From an uncultured Oscillospiraceae bacterium (lineage in GTDB: Bacteria; Bacillota; Clostridia; Oscillospirales; Acutalibacteraceae), in the NCBI GenBank assembly GCA_900547105.1, contig URFL01000003.1, positions 1-64,000 of the forward strand: 64,000 bases of DNA, in the 5' to 3' direction. Below the pieces are notes generated by a model. It was not told the DNA's origin. It ran no database searches and saw only the letters and a program-made list of their open reading frames with translations. Both the position numbers and the translations under genes were made by a program. Below are positions 6,952 through 40,452 of this stretch, one piece after another. Every line of letters starts with the position of its first letter. Positions within the stretch are counted from its first letter, which is position 1.

Positions 6952-7377
6952 ATGTACAGAAAAAAGGAGTCGCTGCCTTATCTGGCGCAGCGGCTGAAAA
7001 CATTGCGTCACGCCAGCGGCTTTACTCAGCAGCGGTTAGCGGATCTGCTGCACATCGAGCGGTGTACCTATGCGTTTTACGAGTCCGGCAAAAGCCATCC
7101 CGATTTGGGGCTCATTTTGCGCATCGCCCGCATCTACAACACCACGGTGGACCATCTGGTGGACCCGGATTATGACCTGTTCACCTCCACCGCCATGACG
7201 GTGCACGCACCGCCCATTCCGGCCGGGTTGCAATCCCCGATTGAAACCTCCAAGCTGGAACAGGACGAACAAAGCTTTCTGGTGCTGTATCGCCAGCTGA
7301 ACCGCGACAAAAAGGAAAAGCTGCTCACCTATATGTGGGAGCTGCAGCAAGAGTCGCAGGACGAAGCAACCGATTGA
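6952..7377 (+). CDS. XRE-family HTH regulator (141 aa)
   Basis: N-terminal HTH (…GFTQQRLADLLHIERCTYAFYESGKSHPDLGLILRIARIYNTTVDHL…). Preceded by RBS gagaggagg and a 200-bp AT-rich upstream region. Confidence 0.75.
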   Translation: MYRKKESLPYLAQRLKTLRHASGFTQQRLADLLHIERCTYAFYESGKSHPDLGLILRIARIYNTTVDHLVDPDYDLFTSTAMTVHAPPIPAGLQSPIETSKLEQDEQSFLVLYRQLNRDKKEKLLTYMWELQQESQDEATD

Positions 7378-7382
7378 TCCGA

Positions 7383-7420
7383 AAAAAGCGACCGCAGGAT
7401 ATTCCTGCGGTCGCTTTTTG
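7383..7420. terminator. bidirectional rho-independent terminator
   Basis: aaaaagcgaccgcagg-atatt-cctgcggtcgcttttt. Confidence 0.8.
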
Positions 7421-7422
7421 CT

Positions 7423-7881
7423 TTAGTCATCCCCCAGCAGCGAGCCGCTGTCGTCCGGCAGCTGCGCACCCTCGCGCGCGGTCGCGACCGCTTCCAGAAT
7501 ATATGCCGCCAGCATAAACACAAATACCAGCAGCACGCTCATATGCCGCCAGATCAGCGTTCCCAGCGTCAGCCCGCCGGTAATGACGGTGGAGGCATCA
7601 AATGTCTGCCACAGATCCAGCGCCACCACCAGAATCACCACCGATGCCGCGCCGGCGGCAATCACCCCCGGCAACCGGTGATTTCGGGCGGCGGTGAACC
7701 AGATGGTCGCCGCCAACAGCACGATCATCGCGGCGATCAGCGGCCAGATGGCATACGGCTCATCCGACCGCCCATTGTTGATCAAAATCCCGATAATACC
7801 GCACCACTGGAAAAATCCGCACACCAGCAGGGCGATCCACATCAGCACCCGCATACACTTCGACGCTGTTCGCATAGTCAT
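7423..7881 (-). CDS. hypothetical integral membrane protein (152 aa, about 4 TM)
   Basis: Hydrophobic segments throughout (…WIALLVCGFFQWCGIIGILI…, …IWPLIAAMIVLLAATIWF…). No named domain. Confidence 0.6.
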   Translation of the reverse strand: MTMRTASKCMRVLMWIALLVCGFFQWCGIIGILINNGRSDEPYAIWPLIAAMIVLLAATIWFTAARNHRLPGVIAAGAASVVILVVALDLWQTFDASTVITGGLTLGTLIWRHMSVLLVFVFMLAAYILEAVATAREGAQLPDDSGSLLGDD

Positions 7882-32401: not shown

Positions 32402-34165
32402 TTATTTCAGATTGTTTTCCAGCGTGTTCAGCTCGGCGGTCAGTTCAGCCGGCAGCTTGTCGCCAAACTTGCTGTAGAACTGTTTGATGCCGTCCAGCTC
32501 GTTCGCCCACAGCGATTTGTCCACTTCCAGGATCGACTTCAGCGTGTCGATCGAGAAGTTGTCCAGACCCTCGAGGTTGATATCCTCGGCGTTCGGCACA
32601 TAACCGATCGCGGTCTCGTTCGCATCCGCTTTGCCTTCGCAGCGTTTGATGATCCACTCCAACACACGCAGGTTGTCGCCGAAGCCCGGCCACACGAAGT
32701 GACCCTCGTCGTCGGTGCGGAACCAGTTGACATTGAAGATCTTCGGCGCTTTGTCGCCCAGCTTCTCGCCCATTTCGATCCAGTGTGCCCAATAATCGGC
32801 CATATGATAACCGCAGAACGGCAGCATCGCCATCGGGTCGCGGCGCACAACGCCCACAGCGCCGGTCGCGGCAGCAGTGGTTTCGGAAGCCATGATGGAG
32901 CCTACGAACACGCCGTGGTTCCAGTCACGCGATTGATACACCAGCGGAGCGGTTTTGGCACGACGACCACCGAACACGATCGCGGAGATCGGCACGCCGG
33001 TGCCCGAGTTGAACTCCGGAGAGATGCAGGGGCAATTTTTCGCCGGCGCAGTGAAACGGCTGTTGGGATGAGCGCCTTTGGAACCATCGGTGCAATCCCA
33101 TTTCTCGCCCTTCCAGTTGAGCGCGTTTTTCGGCGGGTTCTTGTCCAGACCCTCCCACCACACGGTGTTGTCGTCCAGGTTGTGGGCAACGTTGGTGAAG
33201 ATGGTGCCCTGGCGGGTAGAAGCCAGCGCGTTGGGGTTGGATTTTTCGTTGGTGCCGGGAGCCACGCCGAAGAAGCCGTTCTCCGGGTTGACCGCCCACA
33301 GGCGACCGTCGGGACCGATGCGCATCCAGGCGATATCATCGCCCACGCACCAGACCTTGTAGCCTTTCTTCTTGTACAGCTCCGGCGGGATCAGCATAGC
33401 GAGGTTGGTCTTACCGCAAGCCGACGGGAACGCCGCGGCGATGTATTTGATCTCGCCCTGCGGATTTTCCAGACCCAGAATCAGCATATGCTCAGCCATC
33501 CAGCCCTCTTTACGACCCAGGTTGGAGGCAATACGCAGCGCGAAGCATTTTTTGCCCAGCAGCACGTTTCCGCCGTAACCGGAGTTGACCGAGATGATGG
33601 TGTTATCCTGCGGGAAGTGGCAGATATACCGTTTGCTTTCGTCGATATCGCATTTGCAGTGCAGACCGCGCACCCAATCGTCGCTGTCGCCCAGAGCATC
33701 CAGCACATTCTGGCCCACACGGGTCATAATGGCCATGTTCAGCACCACATAGATGGAGTCGGTCAGCTCAATGCCGTATTTGGCAAAGGGCGAACCCACC
33801 GGACCCATGGAGTACGGGATGACATACATGGTGCGACCCTGATAGCTGCCGCGCGCAATGTCGTACAGCATTTTATAGGCTTTCGCGGGCTCCATCCAGT
33901 TGTTGGTCGGGCCGGCGTCTTCCTCTTTCTCGGCGCAGATAAAGGTACGATCCTCCACACGCGCCACGTCGTTGACAGCGGTGCGATGCAGATAGCAGCC
34001 CGGCAGTTTTTCCTGATTCAGTTTGATCATTTCGCCAGACTGGCAAGCCTCGGCGCGCAGCGCCTCCAGCTGTTCCTCGGAGCCGTCGATCCACACGACT
34101 TTGTCGGGGTTGACCAGCTCTTTTTTCTCTTCGATCCAAGACAGAACCGATTTGTTGTTCGTCAT
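32402..34165 (-). CDS. pckG: phosphoenolpyruvate carboxykinase (GTP)
   Basis: MTNNKSVLSWIEEKKELVNPDKVVWIDGSEEQLEA… and kinase-1a-type motif (…FPSACGKTNLAM…) fit GTP-dependent PEPCK. Start at 34165 with RBS aaagggg. Confidence 0.95.
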   Translation of the reverse strand: MTNNKSVLSWIEEKKELVNPDKVVWIDGSEEQLEALRAEACQSGEMIKLNQEKLPGCYLHRTAVNDVARVEDRTFICAEKEEDAGPTNNWMEPAKAYKMLYDIARGSYQGRTMYVIPYSMGPVGSPFAKYGIELTDSIYVVLNMAIMTRVGQNVLDALGDSDDWVRGLHCKCDIDESKRYICHFPQDNTIISVNSGYGGNVLLGKKCFALRIASNLGRKEGWMAEHMLILGLENPQGEIKYIAAAFPSACGKTNLAMLIPPELYKKKGYKVWCVGDDIAWMRIGPDGRLWAVNPENGFFGVAPGTNEKSNPNALASTRQGTIFTNVAHNLDDNTVWWEGLDKNPPKNALNWKGEKWDCTDGSKGAHPNSRFTAPAKNCPCISPEFNSGTGVPISAIVFGGRRAKTAPLVYQSRDWNHGVFVGSIMASETTAAATGAVGVVRRDPMAMLPFCGYHMADYWAHWIEMGEKLGDKAPKIFNVNWFRTDDEGHFVWPGFGDNLRVLEWIIKRCEGKADANETAIGYVPNAEDINLEGLDNFSIDTLKSILEVDKSLWANELDGIKQFYSKFGDKLPAELTAELNTLENNLK

Positions 34166-34405
34166 AATACAAAATCCCCTTTCGCGAAATTTCGTGAACG
34201 CCTTTATTATAGTGTGTTCCTGTCGGAATGGCAATATCCAAATTGTAAAGAATTTGATAATTTTTTGACGATTATTGAGAATTCTGCATATTCGCGCGTA
34301 AAATCCTGCAAATATGGCTCATCCTCGCGACAAGAAAAAACACTGGACTACATCTATCTTTCATAAGTAGAAGTAGCCCAGCAGTCCTAATTTGTTTCTC
34401 AAGTG

Positions 34406-34858
34406 CTAGATCGCCGCTTGCGTTTTCTTGTCAAAAATCCGATTTACAGATTTCACCTTATTATCCAGTTGGCGAACGATTTCGTTGCCCTCTTCTGCAA
34501 TCTCTCTGGCATCCTCTTCGCAGTACGGGTTCTTCATCAGGCTATGGATATATGCATCTCGGCGGTCCTTCCATGTCCAAATCTCATCAATAAATGAGAG
34601 CGGAATTCTTTTACGAATTTGCTTATCCGTAAAAGGTGCGCTGTCATGTATTTTATTCAGCTTGATGCTAAGTTTCAATGGGTGACCTTGTTTATTTGTT
34701 AACTTTATGGTCCCCTCATGACGCAAAACCGATTCAGTTCTGTCTTCGATCATGGCGTATTCGATAAAAACTGCCTCAAGCCAAAAGCCATGCCTCAGTG
34801 CTTTGGAAAGCTTCACCTTGTATTGGGCGTATGTATATTGCTTGTCCGTGTTGTTCAT
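34406..34858 (-). CDS. hypothetical protein (150 aa), distal gene of the low-GC island
   Basis: ORF with RBS ggagggg before MNNTDKQYTYAQYKVKLSKALRHGFWLEAVFIEYAMIEDRTE…. No domain recognised. Codon usage is AT-richer than the flanking genes. Confidence 0.6.
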   Translation of the reverse strand: MNNTDKQYTYAQYKVKLSKALRHGFWLEAVFIEYAMIEDRTESVLRHEGTIKLTNKQGHPLKLSIKLNKIHDSAPFTDKQIRKRIPLSFIDEIWTWKDRRDAYIHSLMKNPYCEEDAREIAEEGNEIVRQLDNKVKSVNRIFDKKTQAAI

Positions 34859-34941
34859 ACCGTTCCCCTCCGGTTTGTTTTCTCCTTTTGGCACCTCACC
34901 GGAAAGTATATATTCTCACATGTGCTCACCTTTTGTGCCGA

Positions 34942-37341
34942 TCACGGCTTTTTAAAATAAAGAAAGTCACTATATTCCGTTGTGTCAGTATTTCCGTTAG
35001 TGTGAGTATACACTTTTATCGTACAATTACCGTTGTTATCGTATGTATATTCCGTTTCACATATAGCGTCGTTAGAATACACACACACTTCTTTCACACG
35101 GTTTCCGTTATCATCATATTTGTACTCCGTCGCGTTCATAAAGCCGCTATACCCTGTACAAACTTCTTTTATACAGCTTCCTTTATTATCGTATGTGTAT
35201 CTCGTCGTACTTATGCCGCCACCAGCACCTGTAAATACTGCCTCCACACAATTTGCATTGTCATCATATTTGTATTCCGTTGTGCTTGAATAGTCTCTGG
35301 AATTCGCATACACTTCCTTTACACAATTTCCATTGCTATCGTATTCGTATTCCGTTGTGCTTGTATCTCCACTATACCCTGTACAGACTTCTTTCACGCA
35401 GTTTCCAGTATTATCATATTCGTACTCCGTTGTGCTTATATCACCATCAAAGGCCGTGTCAACTTTTTTCACACAATTTCCATTGTTATCGTATTTGTAT
35501 TCTGTCGTACTTATTCTACCATTATATTCCGTGTGTACTTCACATTGCGGCTTCGAAAGAATCGAGCGGTAATAGTTCACAGCATCCTTATAGCCGCCCG
35601 CTGCATAAAATTGAGCACGGGCTTCTCCGTACTTTCCGGCGTTGTATAACTCCATACCCGCATTATACTTGTAACTTGGAATAACGACTGTTGTCAGCAC
35701 AACAACAAGGGTAATGCAAGCAGCAATAATCGGCATCCCGATAGCAAAGAATTTTCTGCGCGCCTTTTTGGCTTTTTCCTCTTCTATTTTAATCTGCTCA
35801 ATCTTCTTTTGGCAGGCATACACCTGCTCATCCGCATCTTTCCAGCCAGAAATGGATTGAAACAACTCGATGGCTTCCTCATAAGCGCTGCTATCCTCGC
35901 CCACCATCTGTGACTTGGCCGAACCATATAGGGCATCTTTTCGACAGCACTCTGCTTTGTCGAAGCACTCCTCCGCAAGCTTCTTCGAATCTTTAAATTC
36001 TCCAACACTCTGAAAAGCCTGCGCAGCCGCTTTATACGCCTCCTCCGTATCGGCGGAATTCATGGCGTTGACCGCCCCGTTATATACATTGGTCAGTCGC
36101 TCATTTTCGTTACGTTGATTGATATACGCAATATAGTCGTTCATTGTTTTCGTCAAGGTGGGGTCGGCAAACCGCAACACCTTATGAAAATTGCTGCTTT
36201 TATCAAAGGGGTGTTTACAGTTCTTTAATTGCCCTTGCTCGCGCACACGCAGCTCCGCCATCAGTTTGCCCAAATACGCGCGCGCATTTTCCGGATCCTG
36301 ATCCAGCACTTTTTCACAATAGGCATCCGCCTCCTGCCAATCACCGTCTTCCAAAAACATAAAAACCCGTTTCAAAAGCGGTTCCACGCTTACATTACCG
36401 CTATCCATCACCACGGTTTCCTGAACCGTTTTCTTGGGCATATCCGCCGAAACAATTTTCTTAATTCCCCGAATCAAATCCTGCATAAACCCGAGTTTGG
36501 ACATATCTTGCGCCTGTAGATGAGAAAATTCTTCGGGCAAATCGTAAGGATCCATATCCTTGTAAGCGGGAATCAGCGTTTTTTTGCCGCCGCTGTTCTT
36601 CACCAATGCCAAATACCGGCTCCACTCGTTTTTCACCCAGACAGCATTAAAATACTCCGGCTTTGTACCCAGTACTACCATAACCTTTGCACTGTTAAGA
36701 GCAGCAAATATATACGGCTCATACGCCGTGCCCAGTTTGTCCTCCAAAGTGATGCGAGCAAAGAACACCTTGAAGCCTTCCTGCGTCAGCTGGTGGTACA
36801 TATCGTTGGCAAGCACACTGTCTTGGGTACGACGACCGCTAGCATCCGTTTCCTTGTAACAGATAAATATGTCAAAAGGTTGTTCTTTTTGAGAGATAGC
36901 CAAAATACCCTTTTGAATCTCGTTGATGGTTTGTGCTTCCGACTCGTAAATCTCTCGCTGAACAGCATCGGCATATCGTAGGGCAGATTTATAGTTATCA
37001 TCATCAAAGACCGATGTAAACTGCGCTCGATTTACCGTAGGTATACGCTTATGCGAACCCGGATCCTCCACATATTCAATACCATAGCGGCAAAGCACCA
37101 GAGACCAATACGCCTCGGCATCCGTCTTGTCCTCGGTCAGGATTTGCTCATATATCCCCATGGCTTTGTCATATTCATTGCTGCGCCGAAAATGATTGGC
37201 TCGATCATAAAGATTTGCCCGCCGATCATCATCCAATTTGGGCAAGGTTTGCTTGGTGCCGCAGCTGTCGCAAACAGCTACGGTGTCACCGGGGTGAAGT
37301 TCCAGTGTCCCTCCGCACATTTTGCATTTGAATACTGTCAT
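34942..37341 (-). CDS. multidomain TIR-domain protein: N-terminal zinc ribbon, TIR domain, TPR-like helical region, single TM helix, C-terminal YD-like tandem repeats (799 aa)
   Basis: Zinc ribbon MTVFKCKMCGGTLELHPGDTVAVCDSCGTKQTLP. TIR-like block FDIFICYKETDASGRRTQDSVLANDMYHQLTQEGFKVFFARITLEDKLGTAYEPYIFAALNSAKVMVVLGTKPEYFNAVWVKNEWSRYLAL. TPR-like region (…AYCEKVLDQDPENARAYLGKLMAELR…). TM helix FFAIGMPIIAACITLVVVLTTVVIP. About 7.5 repeats of around 25 aa (ISTTEYEYDNTGNCVKEVCTGYSGD), matching the YxYDxxGN YD-repeat core. RBS aaggag. Confidence 0.8.
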   Translation of the reverse strand: MTVFKCKMCGGTLELHPGDTVAVCDSCGTKQTLPKLDDDRRANLYDRANHFRRSNEYDKAMGIYEQILTEDKTDAEAYWSLVLCRYGIEYVEDPGSHKRIPTVNRAQFTSVFDDDNYKSALRYADAVQREIYESEAQTINEIQKGILAISQKEQPFDIFICYKETDASGRRTQDSVLANDMYHQLTQEGFKVFFARITLEDKLGTAYEPYIFAALNSAKVMVVLGTKPEYFNAVWVKNEWSRYLALVKNSGGKKTLIPAYKDMDPYDLPEEFSHLQAQDMSKLGFMQDLIRGIKKIVSADMPKKTVQETVVMDSGNVSVEPLLKRVFMFLEDGDWQEADAYCEKVLDQDPENARAYLGKLMAELRVREQGQLKNCKHPFDKSSNFHKVLRFADPTLTKTMNDYIAYINQRNENERLTNVYNGAVNAMNSADTEEAYKAAAQAFQSVGEFKDSKKLAEECFDKAECCRKDALYGSAKSQMVGEDSSAYEEAIELFQSISGWKDADEQVYACQKKIEQIKIEEEKAKKARRKFFAIGMPIIAACITLVVVLTTVVIPSYKYNAGMELYNAGKYGEARAQFYAAGGYKDAVNYYRSILSKPQCEVHTEYNGRISTTEYKYDNNGNCVKKVDTAFDGDISTTEYEYDNTGNCVKEVCTGYSGDTSTTEYEYDSNGNCVKEVYANSRDYSSTTEYKYDDNANCVEAVFTGAGGGISTTRYTYDNKGSCIKEVCTGYSGFMNATEYKYDDNGNRVKEVCVYSNDAICETEYTYDNNGNCTIKVYTHTNGNTDTTEYSDFLYFKKP
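34955..35545. repeat. 75-bp tandem DNA repeats encoding the YD-like repeats of the TIR protein
   Basis: Visible near-periodic repetition (…acacaatttccattgNtatcgtatttgtattcNgtcgtacttat…). Explains the spurious + strand ORFs at 35033-35684. Confidence 0.8.
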
Positions 37342-37417
37342 TGAAGATTACTCCTTAATGAAACGAGATTTATGAAGAGTGCTTAGATATCAGGGCTGTT
37401 ATATTTATAAAATATAT

Positions 37418-38086
37418 CTATTTCAGCATTTTGCATTTTTTATTTCGCTCATCTAAAAGCGAATGAAGTTCAGCGACAACCTCCGTTTTATCGACAGCAG
37501 CTTTCAATTCGATCATCTTTTCTGTGATCCGGCTTTCTAAACCAGCGAGTTGCTCATGGCTCACAGGATCGGAGAACCGAATTTTCTCCGCAAGCTGCCC
37601 AAGCGCCGATTTTATGGCTGTATCCGTTTCTGTATCAGCCAACAGTTCAACCTCCGTCTGCAACTGCTTGATATAGAAAGTCTTTTTCTGTATCTTTGTA
37701 TCCACTCGTTCAATTTCGCTGCGTCCGGCATCCGAAGCAATCATACAAACCGCAGATACCCCGGTTATCACTGCACAAGCCACAACGGCGCTCCAAGCCG
37801 GCAGCGCCGAAACGAACAGAAACACTGCAAGCGCAACAACCTGAATCACCAGATAGACCGCGCCAATATAAACGACCGGAAAGCCAAGGAACTTGCTTTT
37901 CATTGTTTCTTCGCGTTCAAGCGCTATTTTCCAAATAAACAGCTGTGCTGCAAAGGCTACCACGGTGAATCCGTAGGCAATCCAAAACGCCGCGGTTTTA
38001 GCCGTGGGCACCACAAACGCAACAACGCTTATCAATACAAACAGAATGCCGAGAACGGCATATCCCTTTGCACTATTCTTTTTCAT
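37418..38086 (-). CDS. membrane protein (4 TM) with C-terminal cytoplasmic coiled-coil; partner of the SPFH/zinc-ribbon protein
   Basis: Start MKKNSAKGYAVLGILFVLISVVAFVV at 38086 (RBS agggagg), separated by 2 nt from the stop of the upstream SPFH gene. Coiled-coil tail (…QLQTEVELLADTETDTAIKSALGQLAEKIRF…). Confidence 0.7.
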   Translation of the reverse strand: MKKNSAKGYAVLGILFVLISVVAFVVPTAKTAAFWIAYGFTVVAFAAQLFIWKIALEREETMKSKFLGFPVVYIGAVYLVIQVVALAVFLFVSALPAWSAVVACAVITGVSAVCMIASDAGRSEIERVDTKIQKKTFYIKQLQTEVELLADTETDTAIKSALGQLAEKIRFSDPVSHEQLAGLESRITEKMIELKAAVDKTEVVAELHSLLDERNKKCKMLK

Positions 38087-38088
38087 TG

Positions 38089-39258
38089 TCAGCCCTCCCT
38101 CTTCGCGCCGCACTGCGGGCAAAACTTGCCGGACTTGATAAACTTAAAGCCACACTGCGGGCAAGTATCCGCGGATGTCTGCCGGGCACCGCATTCATCA
38201 CAAAACGCCGCGCCCGGAGCTAACTCGGCACCACACTGATCGCAAAAGCGATTGACCGCTTGCGGTTGTGTGGTCATTCCCGCAAATGCGTCAGAAACCG
38301 CACCGCCGACCACTCCACCAACTGTGCCGCCAACGCCAGCCATCATTCCCAGTCCGATACCCATATTGGAAAACTGCCCTGCGCCCTCATTTTTCGCAGC
38401 ATCCTGTGCCACATCGAATCCTCGCTCCTGCTGGTAGGTATAGCCTTCCTGCATTCGCTTGGTGGCTTGTGCCTGAGAATCGATAACAACCTTTTGCGCC
38501 TCGGTCTGTGCGTGGATCACATCGGTCTGCTGTTTCAGCTTTGCCTCGGCTATATCGGCATACTGTCGGAAATGCAGCTCCTTGAATTTTTCATACTGCG
38601 GGTCACCGTCCGGCTTGACCACCGTAGTAACATAGAATCGTTTGAGTTGTACACCGTAATCAAGAAAATCGGGAATCAATCGCTGCTGAATGTCCTCTGA
38701 AAATGTTTCAAGACTTTCATCAATCTCAAAAATGTTGATAGCATTAGCACGCATTGCCTGAGCGATATAGGTTTTCACCTTTGTCATCAGGATACTGCGA
38801 AAATAGGCGGTCAGCCGCTCACGAGTCAGAACATGCTCTGTGCCCACCAATTTAATTAACAATTTACGGGAATCGTCCACGCAAAGCGACATCTCACCGC
38901 TCGCGCCGATAGAAAGCGGGAAATGATATGTAGGTTCTACATACTGCACCTTGCTGTCAGTTCCCCAGCGAATCGCCATCTGTTCGGTCTTATTGATAAA
39001 ATAGACCTCGCAATGAAATGCGCTCACACCACCGGTTGGAATATTTATCAAGCGTCGAAAAATTGGAATGTTTTCCGTTTCTAGCGTATACCGTCCCGGT
39101 CCAAACAGGTCAAGCGCCTGCCCATTTAGGAAAAGAATAGCCTCCTGCGATTCGTGGACAATCAACTGAGATGATGTGTTAAAGTCCTCGCAGGGATGTT
39201 TCCATACAAAAGTGCTGTTATCCCCTTCGTATTTGATAACAGAGGCAATATTTGCCAT
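38089..39258 (-). CDS. SPFH (band-7)-domain protein with C-terminal double zinc ribbon (COG4260 / B. subtilis YdjI-like, 'virion-core-protein-like')
   Basis: MANIASVIKYEGDNSTFVWKHPCEDFNTSSQLIVHESQEAILFLNGQALDLFGPGRYTLETENIP is the characteristic N-terminus of this family. Gly-rich linker, then CDQCGAEL…CDECGA…CPQCGFKF…CPQCGA. RBS gaggggg. Confidence 0.85.
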   Translation of the reverse strand: MANIASVIKYEGDNSTFVWKHPCEDFNTSSQLIVHESQEAILFLNGQALDLFGPGRYTLETENIPIFRRLINIPTGGVSAFHCEVYFINKTEQMAIRWGTDSKVQYVEPTYHFPLSIGASGEMSLCVDDSRKLLIKLVGTEHVLTRERLTAYFRSILMTKVKTYIAQAMRANAINIFEIDESLETFSEDIQQRLIPDFLDYGVQLKRFYVTTVVKPDGDPQYEKFKELHFRQYADIAEAKLKQQTDVIHAQTEAQKVVIDSQAQATKRMQEGYTYQQERGFDVAQDAAKNEGAGQFSNMGIGLGMMAGVGGTVGGVVGGAVSDAFAGMTTQPQAVNRFCDQCGAELAPGAAFCDECGARQTSADTCPQCGFKFIKSGKFCPQCGAKREG

Positions 39259-39391
39259 ATCGCAACCCCCTCAATTTGTTATTGTGTACTTTTTCAAACT
39301 CCTATGTAAATTTTAACTTGTTGACATTATACTACTAAAAGGCTGAAATCTCAACTGTTTTCGGGAAAATAGTTTCAACATACAGAACACC

Positions 39392-39428
39392 CCAAAAAGG
39401 CAGGCTCCGGTGGGAGCCTGCCTTTTGC
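39392..39428 (-). terminator. rho-independent terminator of tsaD (also insulates the island promoter)
   Basis: aaaaaggcaggctccggtgggagcctgcctttt. Confidence 0.8.
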
Positions 39429-39444
39429 GTTTCTATTCTCTATT

Positions 39445-40452
39445 TCAGCTGTCGATCGGCATGGTCGCGCAAGCGTTGAGATCCCATCCGGCGGTGTGAC
39501 CGGCGGCGAACTCATAATACGCCTGGGCACCCACCATGGCGGCGTTATCGCCGCACAGCGGCAGCGGCGGCACATACAACGGCAGCCCCCGCTTTTCACA
39601 TTCCGCGGTCATGCGGCGGCGCAACTCCCGGTTGGCGGACACACCGCCCGCCAGCACGATCTGTTTCGCGCCGGTTTCCTGCGCGGCGCGCAGCGTGTGG
39701 TCGCACAAAATCTCCACCACCGTGTGGCGAAAAGATGCCGCCAGATCCGGCACCGGCAGCGTTTCACCCTTTTGGCTGGCTTGATGCAGCCGGTTAATGA
39801 CCGCCGTTTTCAGCCCCGAAAAGCTGAAATCATACGCGCTGCCCTCCACCTTCGGGTGCGGGAAGGTGAACGCGGTCGGATCGCCGGTTTCAGCGATCTC
39901 GTCCAGATGCACCCCACCGGGATAGGACATACCCATGGCACGGGCAGCTTTGTCAAAGCACTCGCCCGCCGCGTCATCCCGCGTGCGCCCCAGCACCCGA
40001 TAGCGGGTATAATCCTCCACCATCACCAGATGGGTGTGGCCGCCCGACACCACCAAGCACAAAAACGGCGGTTTCAGATCGGGATGCGCCAGATAGTTGG
40101 CGGCGATATGCGACCGCAGATGGTGCACTGGGATCAGCGGCTTATTCGCGGACATTGCCAGCCCTTTGGCAAAGTTGACCCCTACCAGCAGCGCACCGAT
40201 CAGTCCCGGCGCATAGGTGACGGCGATGCCGTCCACCTCGTCCAGCGTGATCCCCGCCTGCTCCAGCGCCTGCCGCGCCACGGTGGAAATCGCCTCGGCA
40301 TGGCGACGCCCCGCGATTTCCGGCACCACACCGCCGTATTGTTTATGCTCCTCCACCTGGGTCGCCACCACATTGGACAGCGCCTCGCGTCCGTCGCGCA
40401 CCACTGCCGCCGCGGTTTCGTCGCAGGACGATTCGATCGCTAAAATGTTCAT
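39445..40452 (-). CDS. tsaD: tRNA N6-adenosine threonylcarbamoyltransferase TsaD
   Basis: MNILAIESSCDETAAAVV…HHLRSHIAAN… is the Kae1/TsaD family signature. Confidence 0.95.
   Translation of the reverse strand: MNILAIESSCDETAAAVVRDGREALSNVVATQVEEHKQYGGVVPEIAGRRHAEAISTVARQALEQAGITLDEVDGIAVTYAPGLIGALLVGVNFAKGLAMSANKPLIPVHHLRSHIAANYLAHPDLKPPFLCLVVSGGHTHLVMVEDYTRYRVLGRTRDDAAGECFDKAARAMGMSYPGGVHLDEIAETGDPTAFTFPHPKVEGSAYDFSFSGLKTAVINRLHQASQKGETLPVPDLAASFRHTVVEILCDHTLRAAQETGAKQIVLAGGVSANRELRRRMTAECEKRGLPLYVPPLPLCGDNAAMVGAQAYYEFAAGHTAGWDLNACATMPIDS

Follow-up and report, generated by a model that had tools for sequence, protein, structure and literature searches.

A diverged 75-bp array at the 3' end of a clostridial TIR gene as the probable trace of YD-type hairpin units in an exchangeable outer module

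The window analyzed here is a stretch of 64,000 nucleotides from an uncultured Oscillospiraceae bacterium placed in the Acutalibacteraceae (assembly GCA_900547105.1, contig URFL01000003.1, positions 1 to 64,000 of the forward strand). On its minus strand, it carries a gene for a 799-residue protein with a TIR domain, the 3' end of which is made up of tandem units of 75 bp. We consider it likely that this period is the trace of YD-type hairpin units, which form the swappable outer module of a membrane-anchored TIR protein and are lost one at a time on rare occasions. The coordinates of all features are collected in Table 1.

The initial annotation of this locus described near-perfect 75-bp repeats, with a YD-like motif, at the end of the TIR gene. 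The place and the period were confirmed: the array closes the minus-strand open reading frame (ORF), Tandem Repeats Finder (TRF) reports an array with a period of 75 at 35087-35514 (5.7 copies, 68% matches, 4% indels, score 287), and a gap-free repeat finder places six in-register copies at a spacing of exactly 75 nt, each of them 63-73% identical to the reference copy. Throughout the array the period stays at exactly 75, and internal indels are absent. At a lag of 75, identity reaches 0.653, compared with 0.28 +/- 0.02 (maximum 0.34) in 500 shuffles, and the surrounding lags from 72 to 78 give values of just 0.21-0.30. The repeats are, however, far from near-perfect. TRF, which had been proposed as a check, returned the expected period but not the expected homogeneity. 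Among the seven full units, pairwise nucleotide identity is 55-72% (mean 65%), amino acid identity is 36-72%, and the longest exact word common to two units measures 17 nt, well short of the roughly 90% or higher identity and the long exact matches of a contingency-type array.

Most of this periodicity follows from the protein repeat. Identity between units amounts to 0.72, 0.68, and 0.55 at the three codon positions, and where amino acids are identical, the codon is also the same in 56% of comparisons, whereas codon usage would predict 44-51%. Resampling of codons under preservation of the protein yielded a nucleotide identity of 0.577 +/- 0.010, and none of 2000 resamplings reached the observed 0.651. 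The difference between 57.7% and 65.1% is therefore a small but real excess at the DNA level. The units in the window are old, with almost randomized synonymous positions, and a modest residue of shared DNA descent among them remains. At both ends, the array runs out in partial units. The degenerate leading half-unit forms a strand in the AlphaFold2 (AF2) model and aligns with the first hairpin of homologues, and the ending TEYSDF/YVYFKK is kept in homologues of the YD type.

The YD-like label of the repeats is well founded, with matches above cut-off to both Pfam RHS_repeat (PF05593; 2.7e-10, 40.8 bits versus a cut-off of 22) and TIGR01643 YD_repeat_2x (24.1 bits versus 15.8). The consensus unit reads S-T-T-E-Y-x-Y-D-x-N-G-N-C-V-K-E-V-x-T-x-x-x-G-x-x, in which Y5, Y7, D8, and V17 never vary and six of the seven units have G11, so that the YD core motif Y-x-Y-D-x-x-G-x-(L/I/V) recurs with a period of exactly 25 residues. 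In a phmmer search with the C-terminal 214 residues against PDB sequences, the Rhs effectors Tre23 (3.1e-8) and Tse5 were found, together with a teneurin. The AF2 model of residues 552-799 has a mean predicted local distance difference test (pLDDT) score of 87.4 and begins with three short helices, after which come 16 beta-strands in succession, two for each unit. The top Foldseek matches of this model were Rhs cores (7q97, 8qja, 8qjb), TcB/TcC (4igl), teneurins, and engineered single-layer OspA sheets, with a probability of 1.00 for the Rhs, Tc, and teneurin shells. Each unit is thus predicted to form one beta-hairpin, and the array to form an open antiparallel sheet of about 16 strands.

With the YD/Rhs proteins RhsA, Tse5, TcB/TcC, and the teneurins, the array shares the Y-x-Y-D-x-x-G-x-hydrophobic motif, hairpin units of about 25 residues, and a continuous antiparallel sheet. 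It differs from them in comprising about 8-9 hairpins rather than forming a large closed shell, in its strict 25-residue period, in the cysteine at position 13 of most units, in the absence of an Rhs core, plug, or toxin domain, and in being fused behind a transmembrane (TM) helix to a cytoplasmic TIR domain. The matches to Borrelia OspA and its engineered hairpin-insertion variants are to a single-layer sheet; there is no sequence relationship to the window array, and OspA is a lipoprotein with globular end domains. Engineered OspA is designed on the principle that a continuous sheet keeps its fold when hairpin units are inserted or taken out, and the tolerated unit deletions described below parallel it. 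A further observation concerns the cysteines, which occupy position 13 in six of the seven units and position 18 as well in three, giving a cysteine ladder along the predicted sheet. In Ruminococcus relatives, position 13 is V, L, K, or E, and the protein P0111 has a cysteine in several units. Exposed cysteines are unusual in an extracellular domain of an anaerobe.

Within the lineage, length variation was assessed via protein clusters and exact-protein look-ups. The 799-residue translation is exactly that of allele P0121, which was seen on 115 contigs and, in the index of the collection, in 225 blocks. Different assemblers produced three independent assemblies that match the window base for base over the array and the gene and show 0-1 base differences over 5.4 kb, indicating that the lineage is nearly clonal and that assembly of the array is reproducible. 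The 90% cluster of P0121 also contains two members of 774 residues, P0122 and P0124. Both are exact 75-bp in-frame deletions in a gene that is otherwise 100% identical, with two different junctions. In the P0122 type (loci L001 and L002), the junction falls within 12 nt of microhomology (AAGCACAACGGA) shared by the heads of unit 1 and unit 2; in the P0124 type (L003), it falls at a 3-nt TGG in the tail of unit 0 and that of unit 1. A single-nucleotide polymorphism (SNP) in the flank is common to L001 and L002 and absent from L003 and the window, which indicates that the two deletions arose in different sublineages. Since L001 and L002 share both the junction and the flank SNP, they are possibly not independent samples. 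The deletion alleles were found on 3 + 2 contigs (sources ERZ27310033, SRR7124676, and ERZ28574025) from different assemblers. L001 is a MEGAHIT-style contig with k141 names, and the same junction appears in L002, a Logan contig. As the k of 141 documented for L001 greatly exceeds the microhomologies (12 and 3 nt), and the junction recurs in L002, an artefactual collapse is unlikely.

The copy number of the array is almost invariant, and unit loss is rare: the deletion alleles account for 5 contigs, the 799-residue allele for 115 contigs or 225 blocks. At the assembly level, close strains do not show the frequent differences in copy number that mark a contingency-type array. An exact 27-mer anchor beside the array gave 0 matches in metagenome contigs. 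The suggestion that the ectodomain varies in length between strains therefore holds in part: two exact 75-bp deletions and unit indels in relatives exist, but they are rare and the 799-residue allele dominates. Ready slippage between near-identical repeats, as had been supposed, does not agree with units that share at most 17 nt exactly and with junctions of 12 and 3 nt, and the anticipated assembly hazard is contradicted by the three assemblies that reproduce the window across the array. Changes of another kind were also observed. Some population variants (P0125/P0127 and P0141) have frameshifts at A-rich codon runs. One such frameshift splits the gene after GGKK, around residue 255, and another, in the Ruminococcus lineage, alters the KKEEKK tail at the C-terminus. 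Either sequencing errors or real changes, inactivating or phase-like, could account for them.

Upstream of the array, the protein combines an N-terminal zinc ribbon with a TIR domain and a helical region, in which several TPR families of Pfam were matched. Among family members, C9, C24, and C27 of the zinc ribbon are invariant and C6 is nearly so. The TIR_2 match (2.1e-11) scores 44.8 bits against a cut-off of 28. In 55 diverse family members, W235, V236, N238, and W240 are invariant, and E239 is kept in at least 90%. The AF2 model of the N-terminal 300 residues (pLDDT 81) shows a zinc ribbon of four strands, then a helical region and a TIR fold, for which Foldseek returned the SARM1 TIR as the best match, followed by plant TIRs (Roq1, RUN1), MyD88/MAL, and SPARTA, with a metazoan TIR-STING also among the matches. 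The best PDB sequence match of the TIR domain is that of TLR15/TLR2 (1e-4), in which WCQYE is aligned to WVKNE. Judging by this motif, E239 is a candidate counterpart of the catalytic glutamate (W-x-x-x-E) of NAD+-cleaving TIRs, such as E642 of SARM1.

Residues 531-555 are the only strongly hydrophobic segment of the protein. Following the positive-inside rule, the KAKKARRK stretch ahead of this helix would place the zinc ribbon, TIR, and TPR regions in the cytoplasm and the YD array outside. The array lies beyond the TM helix, in agreement with the putative ectodomain of the initial annotation. Between them runs a helical linker, the pattern of which (KYN..A......Y.EA......YKDS) is conserved among homologues with any type of ectodomain.

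A homologue search found at least 8000 proteins. In the best 120 of these, the N-terminal part, about 73% of the protein, shows about 70% identity to the query, whereas the C-termini are of different kinds, with DUF6273 in nearly all, RHS_repeat in six, and RCC1-like repeats in one. DUF6273 has been described as a C-type-lectin-like domain and is the variable part of phage receptor-binding proteins that is targeted by diversity-generating retroelements (PMC10743442). The zinc ribbon and TIR domain of the window protein are 91% and 95% identical to those of a DUF6273-type protein, 88% and 94% to those of an RCC1-type protein, and 80% and 88% to those of YD-type proteins. Being nearer to these DUF6273- and RCC1-type proteins than to YD-type ones, they indicate that the type of ectodomain does not follow the cytoplasmic module. 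Residues 1-300, compared with 1.84 billion cluster representatives, matched 4035 clusters (50% identity) at E<=1e-30. Among the top 150 of these, the N-terminal region is 63-87% identical even though every one stands for a different 50% cluster, lengths range from 467 to 3073 residues, and 131 of the 150 representatives have a TM-like segment. Pfam analysis of 56 representatives recovered TIR_2 in all 56, with C-termini of DUF6273 (15), BspA-type LRR_5 (6), LRR_8 (3), RCC1 (3), PASTA (1), Fn3-like (1), or nothing known. Some members (among P0148-P0297) have an LRR, TM, and TIR composition like that of Toll-like receptors, in the opposite topology.

Across genome contigs, 592 relatives were located in Oscillospiraceae, Acutalibacteraceae, Lachnospiraceae, Ruminococcus, and others, none of them near-identical. 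As far as these sequences tell, the putative ectodomain is the exchangeable part of a very large, undescribed family of gut Clostridia with a nearly invariant cytoplasmic half. A literature search for TIR proteins with DUF6273, SPFH, zinc ribbon, YD repeats, or a membrane anchor yielded no description of the family. The search with the ectodomain (214 residues) returned just three remote proteins of 319-326 residues with similar YD-type repeats and missed the query's own cluster, probably because the word index copes poorly with repeats.

The arrays of relatives show how such units change in number. YD-type homologues have a similar start and end, but about 11 hairpins at an irregular spacing of 22-29 residues, compared with about 8-9 at a strict 25 in the window. 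Two unit indels, one of 75 bp and one of 81 bp, separate a pair of Ruminococcus alleles with ectodomain DNA that is 98.5% identical, and the junctions of these indels lie in the conserved EYTYDSxGN codons. In relative L055, the array has 7.7 copies with 86% matches, an adjacent pair that is 97% identical, and a 52-nt exact repeat, so the picture of near-identical repeats does fit this relative. The array of L086 has 72-77% matches, and in L017 no DNA repeat was detectable in the array. This spread of homogeneity fits episodic amplification followed by decay, with the window array in a decayed state. In L055, a tandem duplication of 144 bp at 7262-7538 (1.9 copies, 96% matches) precedes the TM helix and the YD array, indicating that unit duplication in the TIR family is not confined to the latter.

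For one Ruminococcus pair, the ratio of nonsynonymous to synonymous substitution rates (dN/dS) is 0.02 in the zinc ribbon and TIR domain (dS 0.18), 0.27 in the TPR and coiled-coil region (dS 0.33), and 0.93, from only 12 substitutions, in the TM helix, linker, and YD array (dS 0.018). This pattern points to the ectodomain segment as the recently exchanged part of a mosaic gene. The alpha C protein of group B Streptococcus and the staphylococcal Sdr/Clf proteins offer a partial parallel, as in-frame loss of whole units resizes an exposed domain there as well. The repeat units of those proteins are near-identical and often change in number, whereas the window array has units of 55-72% identity that rarely change in number, with 3-12 nt of microhomology at the junctions.

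The TIR gene is the third of a conserved three-gene cassette, in which it follows genes for an SPFH protein and a multi-pass membrane protein. In the 79 species loci compared, an SPFH homologue lies upstream of the TIR gene in 54, and a homologue of the 222-residue membrane protein lies directly upstream in 56. The cassette has no PADLOC entry, and the membrane protein matched no Pfam, NCBIfam, or PADLOC family. The zinc ribbons of the TIR protein (residues 6-32, 37246-37326) and of the SPFH C-terminus (38176-38244) are alike, with 52% identity over 27 residues (E=0.013), and may be a shared interaction or regulatory module. In two Ruminococcus loci (L086, 113-1555; L087, 441-2102), a second TIR_2 gene encoding 480-553 residues stands just upstream of the SPFH gene; the window is without it and has tsaD in that place.

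Table 1 Features of the TIR gene, its repeat array, and the surrounding island in the window
Feature	Position	Strand	Details
TIR gene (799 aa)	34942-37341	minus	Zinc ribbon, helical/TPR region, TIR, TPR/coiled coil, TM helix, helical linker, YD array
Four-Cys zinc ribbon, N-terminal	37240-37329	minus	Residues 5-34; weak Pfam Zn-ribbon matches; modeled as four short strands
TIR domain	36496-36870	minus	Residues 158-282; Pfam TIR_2 (PF13676)
Candidate catalytic Glu	36625-36627	minus	E239, from the motif W-V-K-N-E-W
Single TM helix	35677-35751	minus	Residues 531-555, FFAIGMPIIAACITLVVVLTTVVIP; preceded by KAKKARRK
Helical linker, putatively extracellular	35542-35676	minus	Residues 556-600, KYNAG...GYKDA motif; three helices in the AF2 model
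Degenerate leading half-unit	35512-35541	minus	Residues 601-610, HTEYNGRI; found by the unit hidden Markov model at residue 601
Array of seven full in-register 75-bp units	34987-35511	minus	3' end of the TIR gene; residues 611-785, 25 aa each
Unit boundaries	35437-35511, 35362-35436, 35287-35361, 35212-35286, 35137-35211, 35062-35136, 34987-35061	minus	
Unit 1, absent from the 774-aa alleles	35362-35436	minus	Loci L001, L002, L003
Truncated last unit and C-terminus	34945-34986	minus	DTTEYSDFLYFKKP; stop codon 34942-34944
SPFH (Band_7_1) protein, 389 aa	38089-39258	minus	First cassette gene; C-terminal double zinc ribbon; Band_7_1 6.1e-35, DZR 1.1e-09
Multi-pass membrane protein, 222 aa	37418-38086	minus	Cassette partner gene
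150-aa gene 3' of the TIR gene	34406-34858	minus	Called in L001, L003, L083; inside the low-GC island
Low-GC island, four minus-strand genes	34250-39400		GC 0.40-0.51, briefly 0.55 at ~38000-38600, versus flanks of 0.55-0.70
Hairpin and promoter-like site	39326-39426	minus	Perfect 14-bp hairpin 39395-39426, then promoter-like site 39354-39326; ahead of the SPFH gene

Taken together, these results can be arranged into a model of the locus. In-frame deletions of whole units would arise at short microhomologies in the conserved STTEY.YD codons and persist at low frequency, and the arrays of the family would pass through amplification, decay, and occasional contraction. As one lost unit corresponds to exactly one lost hairpin, or two strands, the predicted sheet would stay in register, which may explain why changes are unit-sized only. 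The YD array would serve as the ligand- or envelope-contacting module of a receptor-like protein, with the cytoplasmic TIR domain (W-x-x-x-E glutamate, SARM1-like fold) as its output, probably through NAD+ cleavage or TIR oligomerization. The protein would presumably act together with the co-encoded SPFH/zinc-ribbon and 222-residue membrane proteins. In the family as a whole, the ectodomain would be the exchangeable specificity part (YD, lectin-like DUF6273, BspA-type LRR, RCC1, PASTA), and the number of units may provide a second, slower means of changing specificity.

Several points weigh against this model. The extracellular position of the array is derived from the positive-inside rule only, and the AF2 model of the ectodomain was built from 9 aligned sequences. 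The deletion alleles are known from metagenome assemblies and not from isolates, their frequency of about 2% of assemblies mixes two types of count (collection blocks and contigs), and in the lineage of the window only deletions and no expanded allele were seen. The dN/dS contrast comes from 12 substitutions in a single pair, and the TIR domain could be a scaffold rather than an enzyme. Furthermore, PADLOC assigned no defense system and gave just a weak ThsB-like TIR match, nothing was matched in phage records, and plasmid records matched only through a Burkholderia Rhs protein, 28.5% identical to the ectodomain. A role in immunity is therefore not indicated by the context.

Among the other explanations, the one that fares best regards the ectodomain as a wall anchor or spacer, the cassette as an envelope-stress or membrane-organization module similar to YdjGHI, and the TIR domain as an oligomerization scaffold. 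We regard it as possible, if doubtful. The family is nearly ubiquitous in gut Clostridia without a match to known defense models, and one family representative carries PASTA, a peptidoglycan-binding family. The ectodomain swaps (DUF6273, LRR, RCC1) over a near-invariant cytoplasmic half are, however, more typical of specificity modules than of spacers. In Bacillus subtilis, YdjI, YdjH, and YdjG of the pspA operon recruit PspA, and the combination of Band-7/SPFH, multi-pass membrane, and zinc-ribbon membrane proteins reported for that operon (PMC8581546, PMC9239133) is also that of the cassette. The likeness to YdjG and YdjH is one of composition, not of sequence comparison. Moreover, the cassette as defined has no pspA, its gene order is different, and its zinc-ribbon protein also has a TIR domain, a TPR region, and a large ectodomain.

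A more ambitious form of the receptor-like model would see in this family a counterpart of Toll-like receptors (TLRs), in which recognition of a phage, a neighboring cell, or a host molecule on the outside leads to TIR signaling or NAD+ depletion within, and gain or loss of YD units and ectodomain swaps change the specificity. We put this forward tentatively, as a reading with the odds against it. Like TLRs and IL-1R, the window protein combines a repeat ectodomain with one TM helix and a TIR domain in the cytoplasm, and some family members have LRR ectodomains. It departs from TLRs in its opposite topology, with the N-terminus inside (type II), in its YD rather than LRR ectodomain, in its additional zinc ribbon and TPR/coiled-coil region, in the conserved candidate glutamate, in a fold nearest to SARM1, and in its SPFH and TM partners. 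The resemblance is architectural only, with no evidence of common descent of the whole architecture. With bacterial TIR defense proteins (Thoeris ThsB, SPARTA TIR-APAZ, TIR-STING), the protein shares the TIR fold and the conserved glutamate. It differs from these in having no ThsA, Ago, or STING partner, in being membrane-anchored with an ectodomain, and in its SPFH and TM partners. The PADLOC match to ThsB is weak (E=0.0013) and that to ThcB4 reaches 27.8 bits against a cut-off of 220, which falls short of a Thoeris assignment. To our knowledge, the bacterial TIR proteins studied so far are cytoplasmic.

We think it very unlikely that the array is hypermutable, that is, near-identical, subject to frequent slippage or recombination in a contingency-like manner, and prone to collapse in short-read assembly. 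The period of exactly 75, the existence of unit-sized deletions, the small DNA-level excess (0.651 versus 0.577), and the truly homogeneous array of L055 would all be in line with it. For the window, it is largely refuted by the unit identity of 55-72% with a longest shared word of 17 nt, by the 799-residue allele in 225 blocks against 5 deletion contigs with no expansions seen, and by the three assemblies that are identical across the array.

The converse possibility, an invariant copy number with the two 774-residue alleles as artefacts of assembly or gene calling, is equally improbable. These alleles are rare and come from metagenome assemblies, and three contigs are of nearly equal size (42761, 42800, and 42835 bp). 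A de Bruijn assembler, however, cannot make a junction with k-mers that are absent from the reads, and the microhomologies are much shorter than the k of 141. The occurrence of one junction in both the k141 contig and the Logan contig, of two junction types in sublineages with different flank SNPs, and of analogous unit indels in the unrelated Ruminococcus lineage likewise speaks against artefacts.

Least credible of all is that the array is a remnant or miniature of an Rhs/Tc polymorphic toxin shell and not a receptor ectodomain, as the sequence and fold matches to Rhs effectors, TcB/TcC, and teneurins and the one plasmid match, to an Rhs core protein, might suggest, because the protein ends 14 residues after the last unit and so has no toxin domain, about 16 strands stand against matched chains of 660 to more than 2000 residues, no Rhs-associated core, plug, or toxin family was matched in Pfam or NCBIfam, and the N-terminus is a cytoplasmic zinc ribbon and TIR domain with a TM anchor rather than a secretion adaptor.

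The repeat array alone is ordinary, a diverged YD domain with rare unit loss, and its correction matters mainly for annotation, as the locus is neither hypervariable nor hard to assemble. Outside-in signaling through TIR domains is a hallmark of animal innate immunity. More than 4000 clusters, a cytoplasmic half under strong purifying selection (dN/dS 0.02, one pair), ectodomains that are swapped and resized, and a conserved operon with SPFH make the family a candidate for a link between sensing at the surface and TIR chemistry in gut bacteria of high abundance, and it is these properties of the protein family that render the candidate concrete and testable.

The cassette lies in an island of low GC content between PEPCK (32402-34234) and tsaD (39445-40452), neither of which is a conserved neighbor of the TIR gene in the 79 loci. 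GC content is 0.559 in the window, 0.448 in the TIR gene, and 0.387 in the array. This suggests horizontal acquisition of the island; no direct repeats were found flanking it. The fourth gene of the island, encoding 150 residues, stands outside the conserved cassette, with a homologue in just 1 of the 79 loci, and its product had no match in Pfam, NCBIfam, or PADLOC. The only Rfam match in the whole window was one tRNA, and the vicinity of the array had none. Two sets of candidates within the array were set aside. The second TRF row (34966-35010, period 18, 2.5 copies) is a minor echo from within the last unit and has no meaning of its own, and the plus-strand ORFs over the array (e.g., 34798-35289 and 35253-35684) are antisense shadows of the repeat and not genes, because homologues exist for the minus-strand ORF only. 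Ahead of the SPFH gene, the promoter-like site has 11 of 12 consensus matches, which is a consensus match only. The adjacent hairpin has a 4-nt loop and is flanked on both sides by A and T runs, and it resembles a terminator acting in both directions between tsaD and the cassette. The island starts behind these two elements.

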